From Anaerolineales bacterium (GTDB lineage Bacteria > Chloroflexota > Anaerolineae > Anaerolineales > UBA4823), in the NCBI GenBank assembly GCA_046260155.1, contig JBJYXV010000101.1, forward strand, positions 1-35,858: a stretch of DNA of 35,858 nucleotides. The letters run 5' to 3'. Shown piece after piece: positions 1-27,996 of the stretch. The position numbers and the translations under genes were made by a program. Every line of letters starts with the position of its first letter. Position 1 is the stretch's first letter. The notes under the pieces were generated by a model. It did no database searches and had not been told where the DNA came from. It worked only from the letters and a program-made list of their open reading frames with translations.

Positions 1-712
1 CAAACCATGTCATACTTGATTCAGGTAAGAATGCCTGTACTGGATCATAGATTTCAGGTGGCAGGTTATACACATTCCCTTTATATCGACCTGGCGATCC
101 TAGATGAGACAAAAACAGGATCAAGGGCCTGATATTTCTGTCTGGAATTTCTGGTACAACGCCATACTCACTGAAGCGCGTGAGCATCTCAGGATGACCA
201 GATTCAAGGAGCACCATTCCGCAGACATCATCGGGATTTTCCCCCGCAAATATTCTTGCATAAACACCGCCAAAAGCATGCCCTACCAGAATATATGGAC
301 CTTCCTCACCAGCTTTGTTCAGCGTAGCCTTAAGTTCAGTAGCAATTGTTGCACCATCCCTGGGTCGTGGTCCTGGTTCACTCCACATGATCCCGGACCT
401 GTCATAACTGCAAGAGCGGGTCATTTTCCCGATTTCTCCCTGGACAGCATTCCAGCTCAACGATCCATACTGGTCAAGATCAGATTCAAAAACGACGGTG
501 GGGGTCCCATCGCCCACACAGTAAAGGTGGATGTCATGACCATTTATTGTTACTAATTTTCCAGGTGCGGGGTATTCGGCACGGTATTCATTTCGTAATC
601 TCGCTTCACGGATCAAGCCATAGAATACTAGTCCTAGCAGGAGAATGAGCAATCCTAAAAAAATTTTCCCGATCAAACGAAGAAATTTACGACCACGTTT
701 CTTGGCTGTCAT
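1..712 (-). CDS. alpha/beta hydrolase with N-terminal TM anchor; the C-terminus runs off the window. The nucleophile motif reads GHAFGG (Ser replaced by Ala).
   Basis: Hand translation of the minus strand from ATG (complement of 710-712) is open to position 1: MTAKKRGRKFLRLIGKIFLGLLILLLGLVFYG...YILVGHAFGGVYARIFAGENPDDVCGMVLLESGHPEML. It is a paralog of the 1769-2512 hydrolase, which has GHSLGG. Absent from the ORF track because there is no in-window stop. The plus ORF 104-556 is its antisense shadow. Confidence 0.75.
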   Translation of the reverse strand, partial: MTAKKRGRKFLRLIGKIFLGLLILLLGLVFYGLIREARLRNEYRAEYPAPGKLVTINGHDIHLYCVGDGTPTVVFESDLDQYGSLSWNAVQGEIGKMTRSCSYDRSGIMWSEPGPRPRDGATIATELKATLNKAGEEGPYILVGHAFGGVYARIFAGENPDDVCGMVLLESGHPEMLTRFSEYGVVPEIPDRNIRPLILFLSHLGSPGRYKGNVYNLPPEIYDPVQAFLPESSMTWF

Positions 713-885
713 TGAATTACCTCCTCATGGTAACCCACCATTAATAGGATACCTGATTGTATGGACATTGTTAAGCACTCAGGTGCCTGAAAGTTAAGAT
801 TTGAGTTGGTTTGCAGGTCTCGAATCTCAAGTGGAAATATATTTAAATCCCGGCAAATAATTCAACTTCCCCCTGTTCTCAAATT

Positions 886-924
886 TCAGCATAGAAAAGA
901 ACTTCCCAGGACTGAGAAGTTCTT
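886..924 (-). terminator. Rho-independent terminator-like hairpin immediately 3' of the tRNA-Val 3'-fragment copy
   Basis: 9-bp stem aagaacttc (897-905) / gaagttctt (916-924) with a 10-nt loop, followed on the minus strand by UUUUCUAUG. Confidence 0.45.
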
Positions 925-926
925 CA

Positions 927-1096
927 AATGGGCGGAACAGGACTCGAATTGAATCCCCACGTTCTCCTCGTGGGGATCTGCGACCTCTTCTGTTTATGAG
1001 ACGGGTGGAGTTTTTCCACAACCTTCATACCGTCTATTTACTGATCTGGTGTCTTTGATTTAACTGTAAGCAGGACAAGAAATATCCATTGTGTCT
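927..1096 (-). repeat. tRNA-Val 3'-end duplicate (att-like) fused to a conserved ~103-nt module, copy 1
   Basis: 927-948 are identical to 13743-13764 (22 nt: tRNA-Val acceptor 3' strand, T-arm and 3 nt downstream). 979-993 are identical to 13767-13781 (15 nt reaching anticodon-loop position 37). A 30-nt palindromic insert (949-978) separates the two blocks. 994-1096 are about 86% identical to 10885-10987. Confidence 0.8.
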
Positions 1097-1163
1097 ATTA
1101 TATCCAAGCTTTCGTGCTGTATCTGCACCAGAACTGCACCAGGCATGAGGGAGGTGAACCAGC

Positions 1164-1631
1164 TTACCCCCCGGTGGATCTCCACCAGTATCTATCATGC
1201 AATGCCTGCCAGGCACCAGTCGACCAGAGCGCCCAGATCACAAAAACAGGTTGAATAAATAAGCGGATCAAACGTGCTTGGTCGGAATTTAATCCAAATG
1301 CATCAATTCCATTGACATACTGTGAGATATTGCCGGGGAAAATTAAAACAAAGAATATCGCGGTAGCCCAGCCGATCATCACCCGGTACCTGCCAGGCAG
1401 GACAATCAATCCCACCCCAAGAATTATCTCGACCATCCCAGATATCACCACAACCAAGTCACCATCAAGAGGCAGCCAGGTAGGAACCTGGGCTAGGAAT
1501 TCTTGTCTCAGCCAAATCAGGTGGGCAAAACCTGCAAAAGCCAAAAAGCCTCCCAGGAATCTAGCGAGAATAGATTGTATGGGGCTGATCTTCACCCGTG
1601 CGAGATTTTTGTCATCCATATCACTAATCAT
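1164..1631 (-). CDS. DoxX-family integral membrane protein
   Basis: 155 aa with four predicted TM helices, a DoxX-like hydrophobic pattern, and a C-terminal WxxxAWxALHDRYWW. Confidence 0.5.
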   Translation of the reverse strand: MISDMDDKNLARVKISPIQSILARFLGGFLAFAGFAHLIWLRQEFLAQVPTWLPLDGDLVVVISGMVEIILGVGLIVLPGRYRVMIGWATAIFFVLIFPGNISQYVNGIDAFGLNSDQARLIRLFIQPVFVIWALWSTGAWQALHDRYWWRSTGG

Positions 1632-1768
1632 ACCTTCATTTTGAAAGTTTTTCAGGTCAGGATGCTGGCGTAGAAAAAAAACTCTTATGGTTTAATAATT
1701 TTGGTTTGCTTCCCTGAAATCAGGTATAAAATTATATAATTCCTATTGAGAATTACTCTGGAGGGAGC

Positions 1769-2512
1769 ATGAACATCAAGAAAATTATTAAATATACTCT
1801 TATTGGTCTTCTGGCTATAATCGTGATTGGTGTGGCGGGGATGCTGATTTGGTCAAAAACAGGAACATACCCTGCAGGGACGGTTGCCGCGACTGCCCTC
1901 GAATCATCTGACAGGGTAACAGTTACACAGGACAGGTGGATTGTTTTTGAACCCGACCAGGAAACAGACACCGGTTTGATTTTTTATCCCGGTGGCTTGG
2001 TGGAGCCAACCGCCTATGCACCCATACTGCACAAAATAGCCGAAAAAGGTGTTCTGGTAATCATCACGCCCATGCCCTTAAACTTAGCAATTTTGAATAC
2101 AGGTGCTGCTAATGCCGTAATTGAAGCATATCCGCAAATATCAAACTGGATCCTTGCTGGGCATTCACTTGGTGGCGCATCCGCGGCGATATTTGCGGAA
2201 AACAATCCAGGAACCATAGATGCCATCGTATTCTGGGATTCTTATCCACCGGACAGCGCTGACTTGTCAGATAACAATATTTCAGCAGTTTCAATCTATG
2301 GCACCACGAATAATTTTCCAAATACTGAAAACTTTAATGTCAAGAAGCACCTTTTACCATTAGACGCAAGATTTATCGCAATAGAAGGTGCAAGTCACGC
2401 TCAATTTGGCGATTATGGACCCCAGAAGGGTGATGTTGTCGCCTCAATCAGCTTAGCTGAACAGCATGAACGGGTTGCTGAAATTATGCTGGATTTCATC
2501 AACCCACAATGA
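1769..2512 (+). CDS. alpha/beta hydrolase with N-terminal TM anchor
   Basis: GHSLGG nucleophile elbow and a later His (EGASHAQFG). N-terminal hydrophobic helix IGLLAIIVIGVAGMLIW. RBS ggaggga upstream. Confidence 0.7.
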   Translation: MNIKKIIKYTLIGLLAIIVIGVAGMLIWSKTGTYPAGTVAATALESSDRVTVTQDRWIVFEPDQETDTGLIFYPGGLVEPTAYAPILHKIAEKGVLVIITPMPLNLAILNTGAANAVIEAYPQISNWILAGHSLGGASAAIFAENNPGTIDAIVFWDSYPPDSADLSDNNISAVSIYGTTNNFPNTENFNVKKHLLPLDARFIAIEGASHAQFGDYGPQKGDVVASISLAEQHERVAEIMLDFINPQ

Positions 2513-2814
2513 ATTGCAACACAACCACTTCTGCTCCAATAAAAATGTTTGAAGATTTTCAATCAGAAGGGTATTTTGATAGCAAACCGGTCCAACCCTC
2601 CATTTGCCTAAAGCTTAAAAAATAATAACTGCCCAACAAGCACATCAAGCAGTCCATTTAATAGTTATAGGCGGAATAGGAATCGAATCTCCTTCCCAAT
2701 GTTTATTGGTAAAAACACCACTTGGGGTAGGTAACAGCTAACTCATCCTGCAAAATCGATCAGCTGCGATGTCTGTCTTCAACCAATTTTTTCACCAGTG
2801 AGTACGCCAATCTA

Positions 2815-3666
2815 TTATTCTTGCTGTTTTTCCGCGACTGCAAATATCCTGAAATCACACTTATCACTGCCTTCCATGATGGTTTCTGTTCGCTGCAATC
2901 TCAGATTTGGATTGAAGGCTTTATAGGCGGTCTCGTCTGAGCTGCAAGCCATTAGATAGCCAACCCGCGGATGTCGCTCCCGGAAATATCTTGCCCATTC
3001 ACATTCACGAACATAGGTTACTGCTTCTCTTGCAGATTTACTAATCACTTCTATTTCCAAACCAGCTGTAAATAAGTTCGGAGAATCTGGTACTGATATA
3101 TAAGATTCTATAAATTCCTCGACACTCCCCTTTTCACCTCTTCCAGAATCAAGTCGTTCTTCAACCACCAGGTCGTAAACGATTAATTCTCCCTGTATAC
3201 CATACTTCTCGATCAACGCTTCAGCCAGACAAGCGAATCCATCAAAACGGATGCGCAAGGCATCATAGGCAGAGATCTCTTTTTCCATCGTATGGGTTGA
3301 GAACAGCTGTTTGATTTGAGTGATCGGTGGTGAATATTCGATGATGTTTCTTACTTCAGCACTCGACAATTCGGACCCAAAAGAGTGAAAGAATTCTGCA
3401 ATCCATTCTTCAGCTATGGCTTCTGGTTGATTGGTTTGATCTGTTTCTACTTCGTGCCATCCATTGGATAAGATTTTCATCAAGAATCGGTCGTCATACC
3501 CGGTAAAAGTGTCTCTCCAAAGCGGAAGTATGTTTTGATCCCCTAATCTTTCGCTCAATTGCCTGAGCCACCGCAAATACGGTGCATAGAAGGTAACGAA
3601 ATTAATCCTATAAGGAAACCGTCTTTTATAGCAAGGGATGTAATCCATCCTTTTCATCTTCCTCAC
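2815..3666 (-). CDS. hypothetical protein (283 aa), first gene downstream of the Zn-ribbon/HTH gene in the operon
   Basis: Long ORF with coding-like composition, co-directional and closely spaced with the operon. No motif I can name confidently. Confidence 0.45.
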   Translation of the reverse strand: MRKMKRMDYIPCYKRRFPYRINFVTFYAPYLRWLRQLSERLGDQNILPLWRDTFTGYDDRFLMKILSNGWHEVETDQTNQPEAIAEEWIAEFFHSFGSELSSAEVRNIIEYSPPITQIKQLFSTHTMEKEISAYDALRIRFDGFACLAEALIEKYGIQGELIVYDLVVEERLDSGRGEKGSVEEFIESYISVPDSPNLFTAGLEIEVISKSAREAVTYVRECEWARYFRERHPRVGYLMACSSDETAYKAFNPNLRLQRTETIMEGSDKCDFRIFAVAEKQQE

Positions 3667-3693
3667 TCAAACGTCTGGTGGCTACCATCAAGC

Positions 3694-4053
3694 CTACCAG
3701 AGACAGATGATCTTCTCCCGGTTGCGCATCTGGCTGCGCACTTTCTCCATGTGCCGTAGTGTGGCAAACTCCCGCTCTAATTCAACCAGGCTCATCCCCA
3801 GCCTCTGTGCGACAACCTCCGGGGTAGTCCCGCCGGTCTCCGCCAATACCTGCAGGATCTTCGTTTGAGTATTGCTCAAGGCTGAATAATCATCATCGAG
3901 TTGTGACAGGGTCTGTGCGCTGCGTACCGCCCACGGATCGCAAGCGCGAGCTGGATTAAGTACCCGCATATAGCATTCTTCGCATAAGGTTTCCCCATAA
4001 TACTCCATTTCTTCTCCGGTGGGGATTTCTTCAGCACAGCGTTCGCATTTCAT
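3694..4053 (-). CDS. small Zn-ribbon plus helix-turn-helix protein (putative regulator)
   Basis: N-terminal CxxC...CxxC (CERCAEE...CEEC) followed by an HTH-like segment (TKILQVLAETGGTTPEVVAQRLGMSLVELE). Confidence 0.45.
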   Translation of the reverse strand: MKCERCAEEIPTGEEMEYYGETLCEECYMRVLNPARACDPWAVRSAQTLSQLDDDYSALSNTQTKILQVLAETGGTTPEVVAQRLGMSLVELEREFATLRHMEKVRSQMRNREKIICLW

Positions 4054-4074
4054 CCTGCAGCTCCTCCCGACAGC

Positions 4075-5109
4075 TTATTCTCCCATTCCTGGTTTCCGGG
4101 CAACCGTCAGACTTGAACCAACCCAAGCGGGTAGTTCGATCTCTTGAGGCAGTAGAAATCCAGCTTCGGTCAGCCATCGCCCCCAATCTGCGCGTGTATC
4201 CAGGCCACCGGATTCGGTTGCCAGCAGCATTTGCAAAGCAAAGATGGCTGCATCGGGCGGCCCAGCCCGGTCTGGATCGAGCACAAAGTCGCGCAGTACG
4301 ATTTGGCCACCAGGCTTCAAAGCCGCGAACACCTTACGGATCAGTGCTGGGCGGCTTTCCGGTGGCTCGCCGTTAAGCACCCCGAAAACCAGGGCCAGGT
4401 CATAACCTTGCCCCAACCCACCTTTTTGGAAATCGCCCTCCTGCACGGTTACCCGCCCCGCCATGCCTGCCTCGGCGATCACCCGGCGCGCTACCGGAAC
4501 CACGCGCGGCAGCTCGAAGACGGTAGCTCGCAAGCGCGGGTAGCGGTGCGCCAGGGCCATGCTGTACGCGCCGTGACAGCCACCCACATCAATCACCCGC
4601 AGAGGGCGATTTTCCGGCAGCACCAGGCTCTCAGCGATAGCCGGGGCGATGGGCTTGGCCATCGTATACAGCCCGTGGACGAAATTCTCGATCCAGGAGT
4701 CAGGTTCTTCGTCGCGCTGGTTTTCCTCAGGGCGTTTGCCTGTCCGCACGGCCTCAGCCAAATACCCCCAACGCTGGTAGAAGGCGGCTTGTAGTTGGAA
4801 GCTGCGCAGCATGGTGCCCTCACCTTCTGGCAGAAGGCAGTCTGCAACCAGGGGAATATTGCTGAACTGATTTTCAGATTTCTTTATCAAATCGAGCGCC
4901 ACGGCAGCATTGAGCAGCAGTTCGACGCCGCGGGGCTGCGCGCCCAGCCTCTTTGCTACTTCGGAGGCCGCTGCCGGACCTTCGTTCAGAACTTCAAATA
5001 TACCTAATTCAACGCAGGTCAGCAAAATTTGGGATTGCCGGAATCCCTGGGCTAGTTCTCTTAACTGCTGGCGCTGCTTGAGTAAAATTTCATTGGAAAA
5101 GGCACACAT
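4075..5109 (-). CDS. class I SAM-dependent O-methyltransferase (COMT / O-MT family 2 type, with N-terminal dimerisation/HTH-like region)
   Basis: SAM-binding motif VIDVGGCHGAYSMALAHRYP, acidic FELP, and the DFQKGG and ALKPGGQIVLRD motifs typical of family-2 O-methyltransferases. Confidence 0.7.
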   Translation of the reverse strand: MCAFSNEILLKQRQQLRELAQGFRQSQILLTCVELGIFEVLNEGPAAASEVAKRLGAQPRGVELLLNAAVALDLIKKSENQFSNIPLVADCLLPEGEGTMLRSFQLQAAFYQRWGYLAEAVRTGKRPEENQRDEEPDSWIENFVHGLYTMAKPIAPAIAESLVLPENRPLRVIDVGGCHGAYSMALAHRYPRLRATVFELPRVVPVARRVIAEAGMAGRVTVQEGDFQKGGLGQGYDLALVFGVLNGEPPESRPALIRKVFAALKPGGQIVLRDFVLDPDRAGPPDAAIFALQMLLATESGGLDTRADWGRWLTEAGFLLPQEIELPAWVGSSLTVARKPGMGE

Positions 5110-5126
5110 TTTACGCTTTATTCTCT

Positions 5127-6242
5127 CTACTGATCACTCAAGGTCAGCAGCCCAAACCCGTTAAATGCTGCCGCCATCTGATCATAGACAGGCCGTCCAA
5201 GTAAAGATCGGTAGATTTCGTCCGCCTTTTGAGCAGGTTCAATATCGGCAAAAGCCCCAGGATAAAGAATCTTGCCTAAATAATAGGCATCAGCGATTGC
5301 CGTGTCAATATTAGTGTTGTAGTAATTATACGGCAGTTGAGCATAGACCTGCCCATTCTGTACTGCCGAGAGCGAGTCGTAAAAAGTGGTATTCTTTTGA
5401 TAGTCCTCCAGTACAGCAGCGTAACCCCCTTGGTCAATGAAGATGAAATCAGGATTCCAGTCCAGCAGCTTTTCCTTGTCGATCATGATCGAGCCACTTT
5501 CCCCGGTTTCATCGACCACGTTTCGAGCGTTGATCACATCCAGGAGCGCGTATTGACCCTGGGTGCTTTCGATGCCATGCGTTCCTTTGGACCCCAACCC
5601 GCCAACATAAACCGTTGGTTTGTCGGCTTCAGGGATGTTCATTGTCCGCGCCTCTAAATCTTGTTGAACCTTCCGAATGAATTCTGCAGCAGCTTGGGCT
5701 TTCTCTGTTGTTCCACTGATTTGCCCCACCTTCAGCAGCGAATCTTGCATGAACTGGTCAAATATGGAGGTGGTACCAAAACCCGATCCCCCGTAATTGA
5801 GCACCACCACCGGGATTCCGGTCTTGGCCTGCAATTCATCGGCAGCAGAGGCTTCTGTGGCATAAGTGCTGAAGATTACATCAGGCTCGACCGCCAGGAT
5901 CTTTTCCGGGTCGGGGGCATTGTTGGGGCCACCCTGCCCAATGACGGGCAGTCCCGCGAGCGTGGGATTGGCGAGCATGTAGGGCTTCCCCAAGGAACTA
6001 TCCGCATCCATCTGTTCCACTCCGACCACGTGGTCTAGGTTCCCGGCGTAAACCACCAGGCGCAGCGCTCCAGGACCGATGGCAATCACACGCTCTACCG
6101 TGGCAGGGAGCGTGACTTCCCTGCCCAGGAGATCGGTTACGGTAAACTGTTCGCCTTCTTTCTGCGAGGCAGCAGCGCACCCACTCATAACGAACATAGC
6201 CAGAACGAGCAAAACCAACAGGACGGACGAACGAATTTTCAT
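5127..6242 (-). CDS. ABC transporter substrate-binding lipoprotein, FecB/BtuF/TroA-like (Fe3+-siderophore or corrinoid type)
   Basis: Lipoprotein signal MKIRSSVLLVLLVLAMFVMSGC. Class III periplasmic-binding-protein-like sequence. Directly upstream of the FecE-like ATPase and FecCD permease. Confidence 0.7.
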   Translation of the reverse strand: MKIRSSVLLVLLVLAMFVMSGCAAASQKEGEQFTVTDLLGREVTLPATVERVIAIGPGALRLVVYAGNLDHVVGVEQMDADSSLGKPYMLANPTLAGLPVIGQGGPNNAPDPEKILAVEPDVIFSTYATEASAADELQAKTGIPVVVLNYGGSGFGTTSIFDQFMQDSLLKVGQISGTTEKAQAAAEFIRKVQQDLEARTMNIPEADKPTVYVGGLGSKGTHGIESTQGQYALLDVINARNVVDETGESGSIMIDKEKLLDWNPDFIFIDQGGYAAVLEDYQKNTTFYDSLSAVQNGQVYAQLPYNYYNTNIDTAIADAYYLGKILYPGAFADIEPAQKADEIYRSLLGRPVYDQMAAAFNGFGLLTLSDQ

Positions 6243-6260
6243 GCAGCTTCTCCTTGAATC

Positions 6261-7013
6261 TTATAACGGGATCACTACCCGGCTGCCGTTATGGGCGGCG
6301 ATCATCACCGGGACAGCGTACACGCTTTCAATGGTTTCCGGCGTCATCACCTCCAACCCGCCAGCAGCGAAGATCATTTTATCCTTGAGCAGGATGAAGC
6401 GATCCGCAAAACGCAGCGCCAGGTTGAGATCGTGCATCGCCACCACCACAGCGATTCCCCGCTGGCAGCTGACCTGGCGGATCAAGGTCAGCACCTCCAA
6501 TTGGTTCTTTAGATCCAGGCTGCTGGTAGGTTCGTCCATCAACAGGATTTCGGGTTCCTGCGCCAGGGCACGGGCGATGAATACCTTTTGCAGCTCGCCT
6601 CCGCTCAATTCATCCAGGTAGCGCAGGGCGTATTCACTCAACCCCAAGGTTGCTAAAGCCTGGCTGGCAATTTCCATGTCGTTTTGGGAGATATCCCAGC
6701 GTATGTACGGTTTGCGCCCCAATAGAACCGTATTGAAGACAGTAGCACGCGAGCCTGTACGCTGCTGCTCAACGTAGCTGATTTTCTGCGCCAGGTCCCT
6801 GCGGCTCAGGCTGGTGACCGGCTCATCTCCGATCAGCACGCTCCCAGCGGCGGGCGAAAGGATGCGGTTGATGCATTTGAGCAGCGTGGTCTTGCCTGTC
6901 CCGTTGGTACCTAAAATCGCCAGTACTTCGCCGCGTTCCACCGAGAAGCTGGCCTCTTCCAGCACAGGACGTCCCGGATAGTGAAATCGAAGTCCTTGAA
7001 CATTCAGAATCAT
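6261..7013 (-). CDS. ABC transporter ATP-binding protein (FecE/FepC/BtuD-like)
   Basis: Walker A GTNGTGKTT, ABC signature LSGGELQ, Walker B ILLMDEP. A 4-nt overlap with the upstream permease gene. Confidence 0.85.
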   Translation of the reverse strand: MILNVQGLRFHYPGRPVLEEASFSVERGEVLAILGTNGTGKTTLLKCINRILSPAAGSVLIGDEPVTSLSRRDLAQKISYVEQQRTGSRATVFNTVLLGRKPYIRWDISQNDMEIASQALATLGLSEYALRYLDELSGGELQKVFIARALAQEPEILLMDEPTSSLDLKNQLEVLTLIRQVSCQRGIAVVVAMHDLNLALRFADRFILLKDKMIFAAGGLEVMTPETIESVYAVPVMIAAHNGSRVVIPL

Positions 7014-8083
7014 CGCCGGGAATAACCTTTTGCCAGAATGAACAGGAATAAAGGCGCGCCGAAGAAGGAGGTGATTGCTCCGACTGGTAGAACCACCGGC
7101 GAGATCAGGGTGCGCGCCAGGGTGTCGGAAAATACCAGCAAGATTGCTCCTGTCACTGCTGAGGCGAGGATCAAAAAGCGATGATCGATCCCCAGGACAC
7201 GGCGCATCATCTGGGGAGCGATCAAACCGATGAAACCGATAATTCCCATAAAGGCTACTGCCACCGCGGTGATCAGCGAAGCCGCCAGCATGCTGCGGAA
7301 GCGGATCTGCTCCACGTTTACGCCCAGTCCCTTGGCCGCATCCTCGCCGCTCTCGAGGGCATTGTAATTCCAGCGCTGCATTAAAAAGTAGACCAGGGCT
7401 GCCGCCGTGAGCATCGATAAAATGATCACCTCTTGCCAGGAGACGCGCCCCAAATCACCAAATGTCCAGAAGACCATGGCAGCCACCTGCACATCCTCGG
7501 CGAAATACTGCACCAGCATGGAACCTGCCGCGAACAGCGAGCCGAAGGCCACTCCCGCCAGCACCACCGATTCGGTTGAGAAGCCGCGCATCCGGGCTAA
7601 GAACAAAATCATGAACATGGCCGTCATCGAGAAAATAAATGCACTGATGGTGACAGAAAAAGGGTTGGCGATGAAGACCGCATCGTGGGTGTTGCTGTGC
7701 AGGGTTCCAGCCCCAAAGAACACAATCGCCAGGTTTGCGCCGAAAGCGGCTGCGCTGGAGATGCCCAGCGTGAATGGCGAAGCCAGCGGGTTACGCAGGC
7801 AGGTCTGCATCACGCAGCCAGCCACACCCAAACCGATTCCAGCCACGATCCCGGCGATGACGCGCGGCAGACGGATGTTCCAGACCACCACGCTGGGGAT
7901 ACCGCTTTCTAAACCCAGCAGCGCCCGCAACACCTGCAAAGGATGAGTATCTGTGGCTCCGGCATTGATGGCGATGATAGCCAGACCCAGGGTCAGCACC
8001 GCCAGACCGAGGATCAGCCGTTTTTTACGGGCGGATTGTTGAAGGAAGGCTGCAGCAGCCGGATTTATCAGGTTGCTCTGCAT
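7010..8083 (-). CDS. FecCD-family ABC permease (BtuC/FhuB-like)
   Basis: About 9-10 TM helices with a FecCD-like pattern. I take the start as the internal ATG at 8083 (MQSNLINPAAAAFL...) because the longer ORF to 8227 would overlap the upstream TsaA-like gene, whose stop is at 8094. Confidence 0.75.
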   Translation of the reverse strand: MQSNLINPAAAAFLQQSARKKRLILGLAVLTLGLAIIAINAGATDTHPLQVLRALLGLESGIPSVVVWNIRLPRVIAGIVAGIGLGVAGCVMQTCLRNPLASPFTLGISSAAAFGANLAIVFFGAGTLHSNTHDAVFIANPFSVTISAFIFSMTAMFMILFLARMRGFSTESVVLAGVAFGSLFAAGSMLVQYFAEDVQVAAMVFWTFGDLGRVSWQEVIILSMLTAAALVYFLMQRWNYNALESGEDAAKGLGVNVEQIRFRSMLAASLITAVAVAFMGIIGFIGLIAPQMMRRVLGIDHRFLILASAVTGAILLVFSDTLARTLISPVVLPVGAITSFFGAPLFLFILAKGYSRR

Positions 8084-8093
8084 GCGAATTTCC

Positions 8094-8561
8094 TTATGCT
8101 TCCGGTTTTTTCCCTTTCGCAATCCCGTCCAGGGTGTTGGGGATTTGCCCGCTGGCAGCTTCCGGGAGGCAATCCAGGGCTGGGGCGTAAGCCTTGATAT
8201 CCAGCAATGGGCTGCCATCCAGGGCATCCACCCCGCGCACGATCAGGCGGTCCCCCTCCCGGCGGATCAAATCGGCCACGCAAAAGGCTATCGGGTTAGG
8301 ACGGTTCGGGGATCGGCTGGAGAAAACACCCACCGGCGTCTCGGAGAAAGGCGTGCGCGACTGCAAAATTTCCCGGTTCGCCTGGTCGCCCCAATACAGC
8401 ACGATTAAATGCGAGCAGTGGTCGATATTCTTAAGCGCTGGAGCGAACTGCGGGTAGATTTCCAGGGTGATTTCGTTATCGGATAGACGGCCCTGGTGGG
8501 GTGCATCGCCGCGTTCGTGGTAGGGGCTGTGGATCACGCCAATGGGATTCAGGTGTATCAA
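8094..8561 (-). CDS. TsaA/TrmO-like (YaeB/UPF0066) SAM-dependent methyltransferase-fold protein
   Basis: HSPY...GVFSSRSPNRPNPI...DGSPLLDIK motifs characteristic of the TsaA-like family. Confidence 0.65.
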   Translation of the reverse strand: MIHLNPIGVIHSPYHERGDAPHQGRLSDNEITLEIYPQFAPALKNIDHCSHLIVLYWGDQANREILQSRTPFSETPVGVFSSRSPNRPNPIAFCVADLIRREGDRLIVRGVDALDGSPLLDIKAYAPALDCLPEAASGQIPNTLDGIAKGKKPEA

Positions 8562-8570
8562 TTGAATCTC

Positions 8571-9608
8571 CTAAAAGAATATTTTTGCCAGTTTCAGCGC
8601 CTGCTGTTTCCACGGCAGCCGGTGCGTTACGCCAAGATCACCGCTAAGGCGTTCTTTGTTTTGCAAGTACCAGCTGAAGTTGCGCAGCAGGGCATCCCGA
8701 TTGGAAAACTGGGGATGGTACCCCAGTATTTGCTGCGCTTTTTCAATAGAAACGAAGGAATCTTTGGCCGCCGTTTCATAAATCCAGGGATAAAGAGGAG
8801 AAAGCTTGAAAGCCTCTAACGTCTTCAGGGCCATCACCACTGGGCCTGCTGGAAAAGGAATGATGCGTTTGCCAAAGCCGGCCTCATCCATCACGGCTTG
8901 ATAGTCCTGCTGCATGGTGGTGAACTCCGCTGCGCCGATATTGAAGGTATCGTTGACCAGGGCCTCATCCAAAGTCATGCAAGCTACAATCGTCTGGCAC
9001 AGGTCTTCCACATCCAGCAATTGGTAGCGATTATTTCCTGATCCGATCATCGGAAAGTTGCGCCCTTCGCTGGCCCATTCGTAGAAAATTGCGAAAACAC
9101 CCAGGCGCTCCGGGCCGACGAAAGATTTGGGCCGCAGGATGGACACGCACAAACCGTCCCGTCGAAAATCCTGGCAAACCTTCTCCGCCAGTATTTTGGC
9201 TTCGCCGTAAGGCCCCACTCCGCTGATCGGGTCTGTTTCGTAAATGGGATGATGGTCGGGAACACCATAAACCGCGGTGGTGGAGAGATGAATGAAACGT
9301 TTGACACCATATTCCCGGGCCTGCTGTAAGACGATCCGCGTGCCATCAACATCGGTTGAGTAGATATCTTCAGGCGGGTAAAGCGGCAGCGCTGCTGCTG
9401 TGTGGATCACAATATCAGCCCCGCTCATGCTTTGGCGAACGTTTTCCGGATTGCGGATATCGCCTTGCAGGAATTCGATCTGGTCACGTTCCGGATAAGT
9501 GAAATCCACCAGGTCAATACCATTTAGTTGATTGTAGCCGTGCTTCAGCAGGTAGCGAACCAGATTGATGCTCAAAAAACCGCTAATTCCGGTAATGTGG
9601 ATTTTCAT
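8571..9608 (-). CDS. NAD-dependent epimerase/dehydratase family protein
   Basis: Start MKIHITGISGFLSINLVRYLL (Rossmann GxxGxxG). YxxxK present (YGEAKILAEK). Start taken at the internal ATG (9606-9608), since the longer ORF reaches back into the fwdE-like gene. Confidence 0.75.
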   Translation of the reverse strand: MKIHITGISGFLSINLVRYLLKHGYNQLNGIDLVDFTYPERDQIEFLQGDIRNPENVRQSMSGADIVIHTAAALPLYPPEDIYSTDVDGTRIVLQQAREYGVKRFIHLSTTAVYGVPDHHPIYETDPISGVGPYGEAKILAEKVCQDFRRDGLCVSILRPKSFVGPERLGVFAIFYEWASEGRNFPMIGSGNNRYQLLDVEDLCQTIVACMTLDEALVNDTFNIGAAEFTTMQQDYQAVMDEAGFGKRIIPFPAGPVVMALKTLEAFKLSPLYPWIYETAAKDSFVSIEKAQQILGYHPQFSNRDALLRNFSWYLQNKERLSGDLGVTHRLPWKQQALKLAKIFF

Positions 9609-9621
9609 TGGAGTACATCCT

Positions 9622-10242
9622 TTATAAACGGCGTTCGCCAGCTTCAAAACAAGGGATGCACAGCTTGCGACCACCCAGTAACCGCACGCGTGTCTCCATG
9701 ACCATTTCGCCGCAGGCCTCGCACTGGATTGATTCGCGCACGCGGGCCCTACCGGGAATACGAGATTCGACAGCCTGCACTTCAAAGAGTTGCTCCAGGG
9801 GTAAAGCGAGGATCGCCTGTCCTCGTTTTCGGAACAAATCTTCGGAAAATTCATCTTCCCTGGAACCTTCCTCCACGTTCTGAGTTCTGGCTGCCATTTC
9901 GCGGGATTCATCATTCTCATTCCCCCAGGATTGTGGACGCAACACCAGGCGAATCGCCTTACCATCCGAACAGCGGATGAAGGTAAAGGCATTTTTACCG
10001 TAATCCAGGTGAATCAGGTTGCCTTTGCCAAAGGTACAGCCGGTCATGAACTGGATTGCATCCACGCCGCACATATCGCTCTCGACAATGGCGACGACTT
10101 CCTCATCAGCCGCGCGCGGGCCGATTTCACGCAGTGCCAGTTCCGCGGCACGCACACCAATAGCCAAACCGGGGCAAAAATGTCCATGAAATTGAACCAC
10201 TGCATCCTGGTCTTCCGGTATCATCCTATTCTCTTTGATCAC
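9622..10242 (-). CDS. FwdE/FmdE-family protein with C-terminal zinc ribbon
   Basis: N-terminal FHGHFCPGLAIGVR motif (hallmark of the FmdE domain) and C-terminal CEACG...CIPC. Confidence 0.75.
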   Translation of the reverse strand: MIKENRMIPEDQDAVVQFHGHFCPGLAIGVRAAELALREIGPRAADEEVVAIVESDMCGVDAIQFMTGCTFGKGNLIHLDYGKNAFTFIRCSDGKAIRLVLRPQSWGNENDESREMAARTQNVEEGSREDEFSEDLFRKRGQAILALPLEQLFEVQAVESRIPGRARVRESIQCEACGEMVMETRVRLLGGRKLCIPCFEAGERRL

Positions 10243-10269
10243 ACAGGCTTATTTGTTACAATAGGTACA

Positions 10270-10335
10270 ATTGTTGTATAATAAATTATAATGCAATTAA
10301 TCGCAAATGCAATGATTTGCGTTATAATTTTATTG
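10270..10335. promoter_or_regulatory. AT-rich divergent promoter region with a 7-6-7 inverted repeat and ATAAT/ATTAT hexamer array (putative Fur-family operator)
   Basis: cgcaaat-gcaatg-atttgcg at 10302-10321 is a perfect 7-bp inverted repeat. It is flanked by tATAATaaatTATAAT and gtTATAATttTATTgg. It lies between the fur-like gene and the divergently transcribed fwdE-ABC operon. Confidence 0.45.
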
Positions 10336-10339
10336 GATA

Positions 10340-10726
10340 TTGAGCATGAAATCTAGTACAGTACAACAATTGATTTTAGAACTGCTCTACCAGGAACACG
10401 CTCATTTTACTGCCCAGGAAGTCTATGCCCACCTGAAGCCGCGCCTGCCCAGCGTCAACCCCTCCACGGTCTATAGGGCCCTGGAACGTTTGACCAAATC
10501 TGGAGAAATATCAGTTTCGGATATGGGTACGGGGGCAGCAATGTATGAAATGGTTGGGAGCACCCCACACCATCACCTGGTTTGCCAGGGCTGCCATCGG
10601 GTGATTACCGTGGAAAACGAATTAGTCCAACCTTTTTTCGATGCAGTGGAAGCACAATTCGATTATCAACTCACCACCAATCATTTGATCTTATTCGGCT
10701 TTTGCCCGGAATGTTCCTCGGAGTGA
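10340..10726 (+). CDS. fur: Fur-family transcriptional regulator (Fur/Zur/PerR-like)
   Basis: N-terminal winged helix (TAQEVYAHLKPRLPSVNPSTVYRALERL), HHHLVC and CxxC metal-site motifs. Confidence 0.8.
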   Translation: MSMKSSTVQQLILELLYQEHAHFTAQEVYAHLKPRLPSVNPSTVYRALERLTKSGEISVSDMGTGAAMYEMVGSTPHHHLVCQGCHRVITVENELVQPFFDAVEAQFDYQLTTNHLILFGFCPECSSE

Positions 10727-10847
10727 ACGGTTGCGAATAAGGCCCTGTTTTATATTAATGCATTTTTCAAGCCCAATCATCGTCCTGTAACGAGCTTGCG
10801 CTGTAAACCCCCAAACAAGAAAACGCCCTCTGCCATTATTTCGCCAA

Positions 10848-10987
10848 CCGCGGAAGTAGGCCTCGAACCTGCACCCTCTTCTTTGTATGAGACGGGGGGA
10901 GGTTTTCCACAGTTGCTATACCGTCTATTTACAGATCTGGTGTCTTTGATTTATCTGTTAGCTGGACAGGAAATATCCAATGGGTCT
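10848..10987 (-). repeat. diverged tRNA-Val 3'-end-like fragment fused to the conserved ~103-nt module, copy 2
   Basis: 10848-10884 is about 80% identical to tRNA-Val positions about 37-73 (ccgcggaagtaggcctcgaacctgcaccctcttct vs gggcggaacaggactcgaacctgcgacctcttct). 10885-10987 is about 86% identical to 994-1096. Confidence 0.7.
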
Positions 10988-11005
10988 GCGAGTTCGATGC
11001 TTTGA

Positions 11006-11166
11006 TTGGTTTGCCAAGATATTCCTAAAAACTGTGAACTAAATTCTGTCACTAATCATGAATTGGAGATGATCATGTCCAAACTCAATCACCGTTCAAG
11101 AAAATACCTTGATTTCAAGTCACCTTTCGAGGTATTCTTCAATCATACTGCTGCACTTGCGAGTTG
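11006..11166 (+). pseudogene. IS30-family transposase C-terminal remnant (about 50 codons)
   Basis: Hand translation: ...NSVTNHELEMIMSKLNHRSRKYLDFKSPFEVFFNHTAALAS*. It matches the conserved IS30 transposase C-terminus (eELdxIaxeLNnRPRKxLgfKTPxEvF). There is no upstream catalytic domain, because an in-frame stop lies at 11003-11005. Confidence 0.55.
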
Positions 11167-11489
11167 AATGCAAGCAATGAAATTTGGAAAAGGCGATAGT
11201 ATATGGTATGAAGGGTAAAATCGTTGGAAGTATTGAGTGGAAGGGAATGGTTAGCAAGCTCATGCTGTTCGTTACCCGCTGGTGGGTGGGACAAGATGAC
11301 GCCGCCTTAACTGAACCAGCCTTGAACTGAAACCAGGGTGGGTAAATCACGCCGCTTACCTCTAGGTAACAGCCCAGTTAATTGCAACAGGGGTTAGGTC
11401 GCAGTCCACACACGTCGATAAAAAACAAGCAATACCAGTTCTTATTGGCAGATAGACGAAGATCCGCTAGCACATTCTTCATCGTCTAC

Positions 11490-13091
11490 CTATACTGTGC
11501 CAGGCCAAATGGGATTCATTTGCCAAGCATCCAAAACTTCGAGTTGTGCCTGACCGCCGCCCGCGAAGAACTTGATACCGGTGCTCTCAGGATCGGGATA
11601 GCAGCGCGCTGTAATCGCTACTCGATCATTGGCAAAAACTTGCAAGATAGAGCGATCCAGGAAAATATGCAGCTTGAGCTTTTCCTTCTCAGTCAGCTCT
11701 ATCGGGGCACTGAATGGTGACGGAGGCCAGACCTGGGACAAGCCAAAGCGGCTGGCAGGCTTAGGTGAGACGACAAGCGAGCGATTGGCATAGCCAATCG
11801 TCACTTGTTGATCACCATCCACAGCGCAAAAAAGACGCAAACCACATCTTTTAGCCGTGCTTGGGGAAAGTTCTGCAATAATTTCCAGGCAGTTGCCCTG
11901 TATAGGTAAAGCGACTCCTTGATCATTATCTGTGGTGATATCTTCCAAGTGGGTATGCTCACCACGCAGTACGCACAATTCGGGTACAGGTTGGCTGACA
12001 AGTGTGTTGTCAGGTAACAGTGACAGCACCCGCGGCAGGGGAATAACTCCTGCCCAACCCTGCGATTTCAGTTCTTCGTTATGACGACTGGGCCAGGTCC
12101 AGCCTCCCTCCCAAGACCAGGCAAAAACAATTCCCCGTCCCTGCTCGTCTATCATCACCTGGGGAGCATAATATTGACCGTGATCCAGTATACCTTCTTG
12201 TTCCGGGGTAAAGATATGATCGGTATAATCGCCCACAAAATAATAGGCTCGGCCATTGAGACCCCCTACAAGCACATGTTTATCGCCTTGGCTGAAGAAG
12301 CTGGGGCATTCCATCATCACACCGTATTGGGACGAGTTTCCCACAAAGAGAGGATCGAGGTGTTCCCAGTGATGCAAATCCGTAGAACGTGCCTGCATGG
12401 CGGCAGCCCCCTGACCTTCGATACCTGAACCGATAACAGCATACCATGTATCGCCTTCCTGCCAGAGGTAAGGGTCGCGATACCCTTCGGTCACGATTCC
12501 TTCCAGCGGCGCAACAAGGACGGGGTTATTGGGGTGCTTTTGCCAGCTGATCATCGCATCCTGGCTGGTGGCTAAGCAGACCGTTTGTTGGGCATCTGGC
12601 CCGCCCTGGTAATTATCCAAAGGTACAGTGAAGGCTGCTCCGGTGTATGCCAGGGTGGGCATGCCGTCGTTGATTAAGGCGCTACCCGACCAGCAGCCAT
12701 TCCTGTCGGGGCCGTCCGGCGTAGGCGCTAAGGCGATGGGTAGATCTTGCCAGTAGACCAGATCATCGCTTACGGCATGACCCCAGTGGATCTGGCCCCA
12801 GGCAGCCTCGTCAGGATTATATTGATAAAATAAATGGTATTGTCCTTCCCATTGGATCACACCGTTGGGATCGTTCATCCAGTTGTGCGGGGGCAGGAAG
12901 TGATACTGTGGTCGCAGTGGGTCGCTAGCCATCTTTTTTCTGATTTTCCACGCGGCAGGTTCCTGCAATGGACCGGGGGTAACGCTAGTCTGGTGGGTAG
13001 GAGAAGAGGGAGACATAGAGTCAAGCGTAGGAGAATGGGAGCATCCGCTAAGAAGTGTATGAACAGCAATACTGATCCCACTTAACTTCAT
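11490..13091 (-). CDS. glycoside hydrolase family 32 lipoprotein (beta-fructofuranosidase / levanase / inulinase type)
   Basis: GH32 signature HFLPPHNWMNDPNGVIQWEGQYHLFYQYNP, RDP motif (YRDPYLW) and EC motif (MECPSFF). Lipoprotein signal MKLSGISIAVHTLLSGC. The alternative upstream ATG at 13130 adds 13 aa. Confidence 0.85.
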   Translation of the reverse strand: MKLSGISIAVHTLLSGCSHSPTLDSMSPSSPTHQTSVTPGPLQEPAAWKIRKKMASDPLRPQYHFLPPHNWMNDPNGVIQWEGQYHLFYQYNPDEAAWGQIHWGHAVSDDLVYWQDLPIALAPTPDGPDRNGCWSGSALINDGMPTLAYTGAAFTVPLDNYQGGPDAQQTVCLATSQDAMISWQKHPNNPVLVAPLEGIVTEGYRDPYLWQEGDTWYAVIGSGIEGQGAAAMQARSTDLHHWEHLDPLFVGNSSQYGVMMECPSFFSQGDKHVLVGGLNGRAYYFVGDYTDHIFTPEQEGILDHGQYYAPQVMIDEQGRGIVFAWSWEGGWTWPSRHNEELKSQGWAGVIPLPRVLSLLPDNTLVSQPVPELCVLRGEHTHLEDITTDNDQGVALPIQGNCLEIIAELSPSTAKRCGLRLFCAVDGDQQVTIGYANRSLVVSPKPASRFGLSQVWPPSPFSAPIELTEKEKLKLHIFLDRSILQVFANDRVAITARCYPDPESTGIKFFAGGGQAQLEVLDAWQMNPIWPGTV

Positions 13092-13702
13092 TATATTCAG
13101 AAAATCATGGCGAGATAGTTCCAGAATCATGATTCTTGCCTTTGATTGTTGTATGAACTTCGATTATCCTTTGTGGTTTCGTGGCTTTACTGATTGATGA
13201 CCCAATATCTTAACGCGCGAAATCACCCAAATACATCTTATACGAATCAAATATAGTACATAATTTCGACTATGTCACTCTAAAGAATAAGAATAGCTTA
13301 TATTTTGTGTCTATATTGAAATACTGGAGCATACTCGATAACCCTACACGATAATGGATTATATAATATTTCGGAATTACTTTTTCAACAGCCCGCGATA
13401 CTTTAAGGACAAAAATCTCCACTATCCGATCGACATGTCTTTGTAAATGGTGTTGGTCGACATCGAAAGTGAACAGGTTGGGTCATTACAACTGAATATC
13501 CGATTCCCGAACGCCTGTCCCCGAAGGTGCTCGATGACCCCATAGGGCATCGGTCGGGTATCGGGAAGCAGGGTGAGGGTACTCGTGCCACCCCATACCC
13601 TGTTGTCAATCGCACAGCAACCCACCCATCTAGCCCGTCTATTCGGAGGCGGGCTTAATTTCTCAATTGCCTAAATTTTTTTCTGCTTCAAATTAATACA
13701 GA

Positions 13703-13732
13703 TTGCCGCCCACCATACAAGATAAGCGGCAA
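13703..13732 (-). terminator. hairpin 3' of tRNA-Val (weak terminator candidate)
   Basis: 7-bp stem ttgccgc / gcggcaa with a 16-nt loop, followed on the minus strand by a U-rich stretch (UCUGUAUUAAUUU). Confidence 0.25.
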
Positions 13733-13744
13733 TAATTCTCGTAA

Positions 13745-13818
13745 TGGGCGGAACAGGACTCGAACCTGCGACCTCTTCTGTGTAAGAGAAGCGCTCTAAC
13801 CAACTGAGCTATCCGCCC
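13745..13818 (-). tRNA. tRNA-Val (anticodon TAC)
   Basis: Reverse complement: GGGCGGATAGCTCAGTTGGTTAGAGCGCTTCTCTTACACAGAAGAGGTCGCAGGTTCGAGTCCTGTTCCGCCCA. Cloverleaf with a 7-bp acceptor, D-arm GCTC/GAGC, anticodon stem CTTCT/AGAAG with loop CTTACAC, T-arm GCAGG-TTCGAGT-CCTGT. No encoded CCA. Confidence 0.9.
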
Positions 13819-14080: not shown

Positions 14081-14917
14081 ATGACCTATGAGGACCGTAT
14101 CCGCGAAGCACGACCTGGCATGTCGAAGAGTTTTGCCAAGCTGGCAGATTTTCTCCTGGATTCATACATCGAATCAGCCTTCATGACGGCCAGCGAGCTG
14201 GCTCACCGCCTCGACCTGGACGCAGCAACCGTCGTCCGCTTTGCACAGACCCTGGATTACAAGGGTTTCCCGGATATGCAGCGCGAGATCCGCCAGAGAG
14301 TCCTGAACGATCTGCTCGTGCGCCCTGAGCAAGCCAGGAATTTAGAATCGATCCCTGGCGTGGTGGGAAACGCGATGCAGGAATTGTCACTGGCCCTGGA
14401 ACAGACCCGCATCTCGCTGGATACCGATGCCCTGGCGCAGCTGGTGGACGAGATCGGTGCAGCCAGGCGCATCATCCTGCTGGTCGAGAACCCGGCCCAG
14501 GCTGCTGCTTACAACCTGGTGCACTTCCTTGAACAGGGTGGGTTTCCGATCTACATCGCCCGTTCTGGTGTGGCCGATCTGGCGCGCACGGTGCATACTG
14601 CCACCCTCCAGGACCTGCTCATTGCGCTGGAGATTTCTGGCCAATCCCCCTACATCGCGGGTGCGCTGGAAGCTGCCCGGGAGAAAGGATTACCGACCGC
14701 GGCGATCTTGGGAGCAGCCTCCCTGAACTCAGCCCGCGCGGCCGACGTGGTCCTGGCTGCTCGTTCGAACCCTTCATTGGGGGTCGGAATCATCTCGATC
14801 GAATCGATCATTTACGCCCTCTGTGAAGCTTTACGCTGGCGGTTTGCCGACCGCTTCGCAGGTGCAGAACAGGCAATTGCAGGGTTAACTGCCCAAATTC
14901 AACACTCAAGCGACTGA
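14081..14917 (+). CDS. RpiR/MurR-family transcriptional regulator (HTH_6 plus SIS domain)
   Basis: N-terminal HTH (SKSFAKLADFLLDSYIESAFMTASELAHRLDLDAATVVRFAQTLDYKGF) and a C-terminal SIS-like region. SD AAGGAG lies 6 nt before the ATG at 14081. The ORF track starts at 14042. Confidence 0.7.
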   Translation: MTYEDRIREARPGMSKSFAKLADFLLDSYIESAFMTASELAHRLDLDAATVVRFAQTLDYKGFPDMQREIRQRVLNDLLVRPEQARNLESIPGVVGNAMQELSLALEQTRISLDTDALAQLVDEIGAARRIILLVENPAQAAAYNLVHFLEQGGFPIYIARSGVADLARTVHTATLQDLLIALEISGQSPYIAGALEAAREKGLPTAAILGAASLNSARAADVVLAARSNPSLGVGIISIESIIYALCEALRWRFADRFAGAEQAIAGLTAQIQHSSD

Positions 14918-15717: not shown

Positions 15718-16851
15718 GTGGAACTCCCTTTTTCACTCGACTCGCTCTCCATAGATGTGCATGCTGCTGTCCAGGTAGCGATCGCGCTTTCCCTGATTGG
15801 GTTGGTGCTGTGCATCTGGCTTGGCATCCGCGCCATTCGAAAGGCCAGAACCCTGCGATTTTTCCGCATGCGCCGGGACAGTATGGTGCGAGGCTGGCGA
15901 TTGCTTTTCTTTGCGCTCGTGTTGGCACTGCTGGCATTCTTGATCAACCGCTTTGCTGAACCTGTTGCTTATAATTTTTTCCCACCTACCCCGACTGCCT
16001 CACAAACCCCGACCATTACCATCACGCCCTCCATCACCCTGACCCCCACCATCACGCTGACACCCACCATTACATTAACTCCCTCGATCACGGACACTCC
16101 TACTGTCACACCTACCCCGAGTTTGCCTCCTGAGATTGAAAGTGGTATTGAAAGTATCGTTACACCCCTCCCTGATTCAATCTTCAGCCAGCTGATTTTC
16201 AGCGAAGGCATCGATCAGGAAACCTACCAGCCGTTGAATCCAGGCGAGGTGTTCCAAAATCCAGTTGGCCACATGTATGCTCTATTCAGCTACGACCGCA
16301 TGCTGGACGGATCGCAGTGGAGTGCCCTATGGTATCGCGGAGATGACCTAGTGTATTACGAAAGTAAACCCTGGGATGGCGGTACCGGTGGATTCGGCTT
16401 TTCGGATTGGGACGCCCAACCGTGGGAATGGCAGCCCGGGGAATATGAGGTGCGCATTTTTGTGGGAACCACGTGGAACATCTCGGGACGTTTCACGGTG
16501 GAGGGTGAGGCTCCAACGCCACCTCCCAGCGCGACCCCTTCCCGCACGCCGACCACCACGCCGATGCCGACTGCCTCGCCAACCCCAACGCCCACCCGTA
16601 CTCCAACGCCAACCCGCACAGCGACACCAACACGCACACTGACGCCAACTTTCGGTCCCTCACCAACCCCGCTGCCTCCCACTGCAACCAGGACTCTGCC
16701 CCCCTCCCCGAGTCCTTCCCCCACGAAAACTCGCTGGCCGACAGCAACCCCGGTCACGATCACGCCCACGAAAACTCGCTGGCCAACTGCCATTCCTACC
16801 ACGCTCACTCCAACCATCACCCGCCAGCCCTCCTCTACTCCTTTCCCATAG
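15718..16851 (+). CDS. membrane-anchored secreted protein with two Pro/Thr-rich linker tracts flanking a roughly 180-aa globular domain of unknown function
   Basis: GTG start immediately after the FAH stop. Two TM helices, then TPTITITPSITLTPTITLTPTITLTPSITDTPTVTPTPS, a central domain, and a long C-terminal PT/PS-rich tail (TPTPTRTPTPTRTATPTRT...TKTRWPTA x2). Confidence 0.6.
   Translation: MELPFSLDSLSIDVHAAVQVAIALSLIGLVLCIWLGIRAIRKARTLRFFRMRRDSMVRGWRLLFFALVLALLAFLINRFAEPVAYNFFPPTPTASQTPTITITPSITLTPTITLTPTITLTPSITDTPTVTPTPSLPPEIESGIESIVTPLPDSIFSQLIFSEGIDQETYQPLNPGEVFQNPVGHMYALFSYDRMLDGSQWSALWYRGDDLVYYESKPWDGGTGGFGFSDWDAQPWEWQPGEYEVRIFVGTTWNISGRFTVEGEAPTPPPSATPSRTPTTTPMPTASPTPTPTRTPTPTRTATPTRTLTPTFGPSPTPLPPTATRTLPPSPSPSPTKTRWPTATPVTITPTKTRWPTAIPTTLTPTITRQPSSTPFP
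16009..16113 (+). repeat. tandem 18-nt (6-codon) repeats encoding the (T-P-T/S-I-T-L)n linker
   Basis: accgaccattaccatcacg / ccctccatcaccctg / acccccaccatcacgctg / acacccaccattacatta / actccctcgatcacggac. A further 45-nt tandem duplication at 16720-16809 starts cccacgaaaactcgctggcc in both units. Confidence 0.7.
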
Positions 16852-27717: not shown

Positions 27718-27996
27718 GCTGGAATGATTGTATAACAAAACTCAAAATTAGGGGAATTCACTTCGCAGCTGGTGATAAAATCATAGCAAGCTGGCTGCAA
27801 TCATAAAACCAGCAGCAGATGGTTCGCATGTAGAATTCGTCAGGACAAGCAATCGCGCCCAAATCAAGGAAAAGATCCTCATCCAACCTTGGTAATCCGG
27901 TATGTTAATTGCACATCAACTAGATCGTCGGGTGCAGAACGGAAACCTGCTTCGATCTGTATTTCCAAATTACTAATTTCTGCGGAGAGCTAACTA

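Follow-up and report, generated by a model that had tools for sequence, protein, structure and literature searches.

The tRNA-Val locus and a split copy of its 3' part

The stretch analyzed here (the window) comprises 35,858 nt of an Anaerolineales genome (contig JBJYXV010000101.1, assembly GCA_046260155.1). It encodes an intact tRNA-Val(UAC) on the minus strand (13745-13818; identified with ARAGORN and Rfam), whose right flank, the gene series RpiR-FAH-hyp377-IndA-PfkB, is kept across Anaerolineales. The 3' part of this tRNA gene recurs 12.8 kb away in the same orientation, at 927-993. We consider it likely that the tRNA gene has been an integration target and that integrative elements stacked in tandem at this site survive in the window in degenerate form.

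The segment of identity within the intact gene (13743-13781, minus strand) consists of two blocks. The 3' block (13743-13764) covers the T loop, the 3' strands of the T stem and acceptor stem, the discriminator base and a further TT; the 5' block (13766-13781) covers tRNA positions 37 to 52. By direct string comparison, the distal copy (minus strand) matches the 3' block at 927-948 (22/22) and the 5' block at 978-993 (16/16). An earlier examination of the letters of this DNA (the sequence-only reading) had reported the first match correctly and the second as 15/15, one base short. It also had the identity ending at canonical tRNA position 37, as it does; a weaker similarity (13/15) runs on through the anticodon loop. 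The 22-mer occurs exactly twice in the window at up to 3 mismatches, with 0 occurrences expected from 100 shuffles, and the distal repeat has a blastn-short E-value of 1.3e-7; on these two counts a chance origin was rejected. A distal direct repeat of the tRNA 3' part, co-oriented with the gene, is what a tRNA-integrating element leaves.

The two blocks of the distal copy are separated by 29 nt (949-977, minus strand; TTGAATCCCCACGTTCTCCTCGTGGGGAT) that stand in for a single base of the intact gene (13765, tRNA position 53). This insert forms a perfect 9-bp hairpin (-14.8 kcal/mol; z = -4.7 relative to shuffled sequences). No second copy of the hairpin was found within the window, and the idea of a dispersed repeat was dropped. 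Downstream of the distal copy, in the sense of the tRNA, a terminator-like hairpin (886-924) is followed by a GAGAACAGGGGGAAG box (866-880), the whole feature (866-924) lying on the minus strand. The sequence-only reading had called 886-924 a good intrinsic terminator; it does fold (-15.8 kcal/mol) and is followed by TTTTCT, but it is absent from the list of a consensus terminator scan. The GAGAACAGGGGGAAG box also occurs downstream of tRNA-Val in one relative (L002). The intact tRNA has, as had been stated, a different downstream flank. Rfam searches of the arm and tRNA-like module matched only the two tRNAs and no other RNA family.

Integrases at the same tRNA gene in relatives

A search with the RpiR protein encoded beside the tRNA returned 43 loci, each of them in a metagenome-assembled genome of Anaerolineales/Chloroflexota. 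The tRNA-Val gene and the RpiR-to-PfkB series are syntenic throughout these loci, and the flank is kept in about 40 species; the DNA on the 3' side of the tRNA differs in almost every genome and is hypervariable. On that side two relatives have a gene for a tyrosine integrase that is convergent with the tRNA gene: in L038 it is full length (382 aa), in L010 nearly so. Others keep C-terminal integrase stumps of 186 (L003), 66-77 (L001), 57-65 (L014), 52-54 (L024) and 33-39 (L041) residues. At L003 (7697-9580), an open reading frame (ORF) for a class-V aminotransferase continues in frame into the 186-residue stump of the decayed integrase.

Between the tRNA and the integrase, many relatives share a string made of a CCCCC...GGGGG terminator hairpin, a ATATGGGGG box, which the GAGAACAGGGGGAAG box of the window resembles, and two or three tandem GGTGCA(G/A) repeats. 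None of this string is present in the empty-looking sites of L025, L027, L029, L034 and L036. Because it is found beside integrases and is absent from genomes that look unoccupied, we assign it to the integrase-proximal (P') arm of the element.

The integrase family comprises 4175 homologs of about 385-400 aa with SAM_3 and Phage_integrase domains. In five loci (L061-L065) the order is Xis (HTH_17), integrase, P' arm, tRNA-Val, FAH. One integrase, P0143, was found on 18 Logan contigs, five of which (L056-L060, from five sequencing runs) end at the same base inside the tRNA: they share its last 30 nt and stop 10 nt upstream of the tRNA-Val T loop. We infer that this common stop marks a branch in the assembly graph; it is consistent with co-existing alternative junctions, either integrated and excised forms or strain variants. 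The element on L056 carries defense-type genes (DUF1156, GmrSD_N, SNF2/NOV_C). The closest viral integrases are at most 45% identical, and the pattern of the hairpin-split core is absent from IMG/VR, so the family may consist of phages or of islands.

In the window itself, tblastn with three integrases of the family gave E > 1, and Pfam searches of the main ORFs returned no Phage_integrase domain, in line with the earlier statement that no integrase gene survives. Integrases stand at this same tRNA gene in L038, L010, L054, L055 and L061; because the window lacks one, we regard it as holding remnants and not an element.

Element arms and arm-type sites

Adjoining the 5' block of the distal copy, the segment 994-1150 (minus strand) belongs to the element family as a P-type arm. 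Homologous arms stand in four other metagenomic loci (L050, L053, L054 and L055; MAFFT alignment and nhmmer, E = 4e-47), and the segment carries two tandem arm-type sites, TGGTGCAG occurring at 1123-1130 and again at 1134-1141 with a period of 11, about 130 nt from the core. Relatives have the GGTGCAG motif in the interval from tRNA to integrase, and in L054 both arms carry it. Judged by this distribution, GGTGCA(G/A) is the predicted arm-type site of the family integrase, so the attachment site (att) would have the heterobivalent architecture of the lambda type.

In L050, L053 and L054, each arm has two GGTGCAG sites and an ATAGACA/TGGATATTTC region, and next to it stands a tRNA-like half that is interrupted by an insert at the same place. 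In L054 and also L055, whose integrase is 91% identical to that of L054, a P arm, split core, terminator, GGGGG box, two arm sites and intact integrase are contiguous; this arrangement is either an attP or a tandem junction. We interpret 927-1141 of the window as an attR-type (far-end) junction of a tyrosine-integrase family that targets tRNA-Val(UAC) across Anaerolineales, and the sequence-only reading, which had seen in the repeats the attachment-site scars of tyrosine-integrase elements, is supported in this respect.

The arms also bear on the idea that the copies are relics of duplicated tRNA-Val genes, left as pseudogenes by a process other than site-specific integration. One relative (L040) does have a near-complete second tRNA-Val copy in tandem, and some similarity extends into the anticodon loop. 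Yet the 5' half is missing from every copy, each of which runs from near positions 29-40 exactly to the tRNA 3' end, and upstream of the copies stands a conserved arm with arm-type sites in place of a tRNA promoter or flank. We regard a pseudogene origin as highly improbable.

Further junctions in and beyond the window

A third, diverged tRNA-Val-like 3' half, missed in the sequence-only reading, lies at 10850-10892 (minus strand). It has no hairpin and is 87% identical over 31 nt. On its tRNA-5' side, about 110 nt (10893-11003) are 81-86% identical to 994-1112 and form part of a second P-type arm (10893-11033, minus strand; nhmmer E = 3e-35), whose arm-type sites are lost where an IS30-family transposase remnant begins (C-terminal part, 11008-11167, plus strand; a weak match, E = 0.002). 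The segment 10869-11033 has homology to 994-1150 and also to the arms of the four metagenomic loci named above. Downstream of this copy is a TTTGGGGGT box (10807-10815, minus strand), a P'-type arm remnant. The segment 10850-11033 thus has a P-type arm on one side and the TTTGGGGGT box on the other, the internal far-arm/near-arm junction of a tandem array in degenerate form. The fur gene is convergent at this junction, where relatives have the integrase gene. A possible fourth remnant at 2659-2687, which like the arm similarity had also gone unnoticed in the sequence-only reading, matches 16/18 over the T-arm/acceptor part and is followed by a terminator-like hairpin (2627-2654) and a AAATGGAGGGT box, the whole (2627-2687) on the minus strand; it may be a third junction of the array.

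A contig of the same species (L044) is 99.5% identical over window positions 1-10724, has the same gene order and extends to the left. It carries another tRNA-Val half, 4.77 kb left of the copy at 927 (L044 14477-14554), with a 39-nt insert (14493-14531) at the same position. The sequence-only reading had taken the copy at 927 as the outer boundary, with chromosomal DNA beyond; in this species a further hairpin-bearing half lies beyond it. The alpha/beta-hydrolase gene next to the distal copy (1-712, minus strand; start at 712, running off the window) is between two att-like copies in L044, and for this reason is not demonstrably original flank. The hydrolase is widely conserved, and its orthologs in other species are located away from tRNA-Val. 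Overlapping it, a plus-strand ORF (104-556, 150 aa) found no homolog among 5.8 billion proteins and merely shadows the hydrolase gene of the opposite strand; on both grounds it was ruled out as a conserved flank gene.

At least 10 same-species contigs from several samples reach the junction (including contigs of GCA_046259375.1 and GCA_045888115.1) and match the window colinearly (99.7-99.9% identity); the array seems close to fixation in this species. In one contig (L072), identity is 99.75% for the tRNA and everything to its right, and unrelated DNA takes over from the base after the discriminator. Its new flank (L072 1-529) has an encoded CCA, another terminator and a PAS-domain gene. The breakpoint is that expected of an alternative or unoccupied site, and neither in the window nor in L044 does this PAS-gene flank appear on the far side of a copy.

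The sequence-only reading had predicted an empty site in which tRNA-Val is directly followed by the 886-924 terminator and the hydrolase gene. None was found: the neighborhoods of hydrolase orthologs (L046 and L047) are without tRNA-Val, and exact-protein look-ups returned same-species contigs that are all occupied but one, L072, the sole alternative, which has the different terminator and the PAS-domain gene. The empty-looking sites of distant relatives carry other flanks, and their left-flank genes, taken as ancestral, are absent from the window and L044.

These observations bear on the explanation offered originally, a single island of about 12.8 kb, possibly composite, reaching from the tRNA to the copy at 927-993, with crossover at position 37 and with 886-926 and the hydrolase gene as original flank. 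The identity does end at position 37, and the distal copy is followed by a terminator-like hairpin and a widely conserved gene. Against it are the further copy 4.77 kb beyond the hydrolase gene, the internal junction with a homologous arm (10850-11033) and possibly another at 2659-2687, the placement of the hydrolase gene elsewhere than beside tRNA-Val in other species, and the different flank of L072. A single island is, on this evidence, improbable; the composite nature that had been allowed for is supported.

The site of strand exchange and the hairpin insert

What travels with the arms speaks against the crossover proposed at position 37. In L050, L053, L054 and L055 the 16-nt block and the hairpin accompany the element arm; in five independent loci, homologous arms are accompanied both by the 5' block and by the insert (at position 52/54), also beside an intact integrase. 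Intact tRNA-Val genes have no insert. Because the 5' block and insert are element-borne and the insert never occurs in intact tRNAs, exchange is placed 3' of the insert, probably within the 3' block of 20-23 nt from T loop to acceptor (in the window 927-948), with a predicted site within TTCGAGTCCTGTTCCGCCCA. Exchange in the anticodon loop would put the insert inside a working tRNA, a further point against the single island. The shared last 30 nt of the tRNA at the ends of the P0143 contigs agree with exchange near the 3' end, as does L041, where the tRNA 3' part is also repeated, with an identity block of 34 nt and the integrase remnant behind the inner copy. An exchange in the T-loop-to-acceptor block would correspond to the T-loop or 3'-end sublocation of integration within tRNA genes, not to that of the anticodon loop, in the sense of Williams 2002 as cited in PMC7192596. 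The anticodon loop (sublocation I) is thereby disfavored from sequence rather than from a mapped exchange.

Inserts homologous to that of the window occur in L050, L053 and the L044 copy. Common to them is the base RTCCCC...GGGGAT plus TCAA; variable are the tip sequence and the length (20-40 nt). The inserts of L054 and L055 are unrelated to this type in sequence and occupy the same T-stem/T-loop position; in L054, taking the insert out restores the tRNA sequence exactly, and the 3' arm of the insert mirrors the T-stem/acceptor strand. A metagenome scan for the two tRNA blocks 20-50 nt apart found the window's own species and three other organisms; the pattern demanded an insert, so insert-free copies were outside its reach. 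Because two copies, the internal one of the window (10850-10892) and that of L041, lack an insert, we view it as a feature of a sublineage and not of the whole family.

The recurrence of unrelated inserts at one position in two arm sublineages, the kept stem with its varying tip and the exact restoration in L054 lead us to suggest, tentatively and with considerable doubt, that the palindromic insert at the T-stem/T-loop boundary may not be junk. It may be a functional part of the att site, in which case it could extend a dyad-symmetric core site or extrude as a cruciform, distinguishing attP and attR from attB. Alternatively, it may be a recurrent scar, produced by aberrant hairpin formation at the integrase cleavage site and marking the position of the cut. 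A functional insert would matter for the question of how tyrosine integrases discriminate between attP and attB.

Genes between the copies and composition

Beside the distal arm is a segment low in G+C at third codon positions (GC3) that encodes a 155-aa membrane protein and an Abhydrolase_5 protein (1164-2512). It is followed by a cluster of core-like composition (2815-10726), in which the fur gene diverges from one for an FmdE-domain protein that also bears a DksA/TraR zinc finger; then come an NAD epimerase, a TrmO_N protein, a FecCD/ABC/periplasmic-binding protein (PBP) transporter, an O-methyltransferase, a 119-aa winged helix-turn-helix protein and an ATC_hydrolase. It is an unusual cluster of uptake type and may encode a metal or metallophore system. 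The sole gene of the tRNA-proximal segment is a GH32 fructosidase (11490-13130, minus strand), called as 546 aa or 480 aa among public annotations of near-identical contigs; the 614-nt spacer between it and the tRNA has two strong hairpins and no integrase-arm motifs. Pfam confirmed most of the cargo listed in the sequence-only reading; DoxX was not confirmed for the 155-aa protein, and the IS30 match is the weak one given above.

The expectation that composition would mark the enclosed DNA as foreign was not borne out. The region 2700-10857 correlates with core DNA at r = 0.86-0.89, and low GC3 is limited to 1769-3666, with the Abhydrolase_5 and ATC_hydrolase genes standing out (GC3 0.41). 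Composition neither proves nor disproves import.

Native composition would fit another explanation, in which the arm and tRNA half together are a small non-autonomous repeat, a miniature att cassette mobilized in trans or duplicated, and the genes between are chromosome. Gene-free attL-attR cassettes, cis-mobilizable elements (CIMEs), are known in streptococci, and a form like these or like a miniature inverted-repeat transposable element (MITE) would also account for modules that have no genes of their own here and number several in about 18 kb. However, all copies are co-oriented with the tRNA and on its 3' side only, in L054 and L055 such modules stand beside integrases, nhmmer found no further arm copies in the ~35 kb of the window or the other fetched loci, and the hypervariability of the tRNA 3' side between species fits turnover of cargo. 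We judge this explanation unlikely, and the tandem array of integrative elements remains our preferred one.

To the right of the tRNA, the 377-aa protein beside FAH (15718-16851) combines a membrane segment at its N terminus with long tandem linkers rich in Thr and Pro (TPTITL-type repeats); its gene is kept across Anaerolineales, and some public annotations call two small opposite-strand ORFs instead. A SBP_bac_5 solute-binding gene (17721-19829; GC 0.485) between B3_4 and IndA looks like a lineage-specific insertion, since B3_4 and IndA are adjacent in the nearest relatives (L003, L004 and L006). A gene for a protein of about 1410 aa with LVIVD repeats (beta-propeller; 23500-27738) is beside PfkB in same-species contigs, and a similar large LVIVD-repeat protein is encoded in the same neighborhood of L061.

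Proposed history of the array

We propose that a lambda-type (heterobivalent) tyrosine integrase of about 390 aa binds tandem GGTGCA(G/A) sites and recombines with the 3' part of tRNA-Val. An intact integrated element would have the order tRNA-Val, terminator hairpin, ATATGGGGG box, two or three arm sites, convergent integrase, Xis-like HTH_17 gene and cargo, and at its far end a P arm of about 130 nt with two arm sites, which adjoins a tRNA-like 3' half. In the window, 927-1141 would be one such far-end junction, 10850-11033 a second that is more decayed and truncated by IS30, and 2659-2687 perhaps a third. Repeated integrations of related elements at tRNA-Val would have stacked them, and later deletions and the IS30 event would have removed every integrase and every P' arm except short boxes. 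What is left would be far-end junctions in differing states of decay with accessory genes, presumably cargo, between them, in an array that would now be immobile.

Several observations weigh against this history. The window has no integrase or recognizable fragment of one, which leaves att architecture as the sole basis of its family membership. No cognate empty site was found, and neither the window nor the 10 kb to its left showed the outermost junction, in which an arm would meet native flank. Several species have an identical 74-nt tRNA, and L072 may be a chimera that the assembly formed through it. The remnant at 2659 is a weak one, and pairing with the 5' half of the tRNA would not be possible for the internal copy (10850-10892). 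In composition the large middle segment is native, and it may be old, exchanged between close relatives, or not cargo. Finally, the internal copy must have decayed if it ever completed the tRNA, though it is expected to be the younger, and the outer copy is perfectly conserved. Integration into secondary att copies is one possible explanation of this last conflict.

Relation to known systems

For annotation, the first 13.7 kb of the window are best described as an integration hot spot in decay, where att scars and accessory genes are stacked and do not form a single island, in a variable region that goes beyond the window. Anaerolineales are known mainly from metagenome-assembled genomes, and the analysis defines a large integrase family in them, the att architecture of which (the GGTGCA(G/A) site, ATATGGGGG box, and P and P' arms) is a practical marker of island boundaries in their genomes. 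No elements of this kind in Anaerolineales/Chloroflexota were described in the literature searched. The tRNA-Val-specific integrase family and its att signature thus appear to be undescribed for Anaerolineales; elements of this kind are themselves well known.

The closest parallels are tRNA-integrating elements of the lambda/P4 type. As in those, insertion is at the 3' part of a tRNA and restores the gene, a direct repeat of the 3' segment marks the far end, tandem arm-type repeats are on both arms (L054), and the integrase lies beside the tRNA with an HTH_17 Xis-like gene next. Unlike them, the window itself is without integrase, Xis and P' arms, and in one sublineage here the tRNA-like att core is split by a palindromic insert.

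Accretion of integrative and conjugative elements (ICEs) and CIMEs occurs in Streptococcus thermophilus. Tandem arrays of integrative genetic elements are a documented result of repeated integration (PMC7192596). The window resembles both in having several co-oriented att junctions on one side of the target, in internal junctions where an element's far arm meets what remains of its neighbor's near arm, and in the loss of recombination genes. It differs in that no member keeps an integrase and in the apparent near-fixation of the array in the species.

Integron attC sites and the attP of CTX phage (acted on by XerCD) are recombined as folded single strands, without arm-type sites. The likeness to these is one of resemblance only: here too a stem-loop, its structure better conserved than its sequence, is at or beside the presumed exchange site. 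In contrast to attC and CTX attP, the architecture here is the classical double-stranded, lambda-like one, and some family members have no insert. The split core is the sole unusual feature of an otherwise known kind of element.

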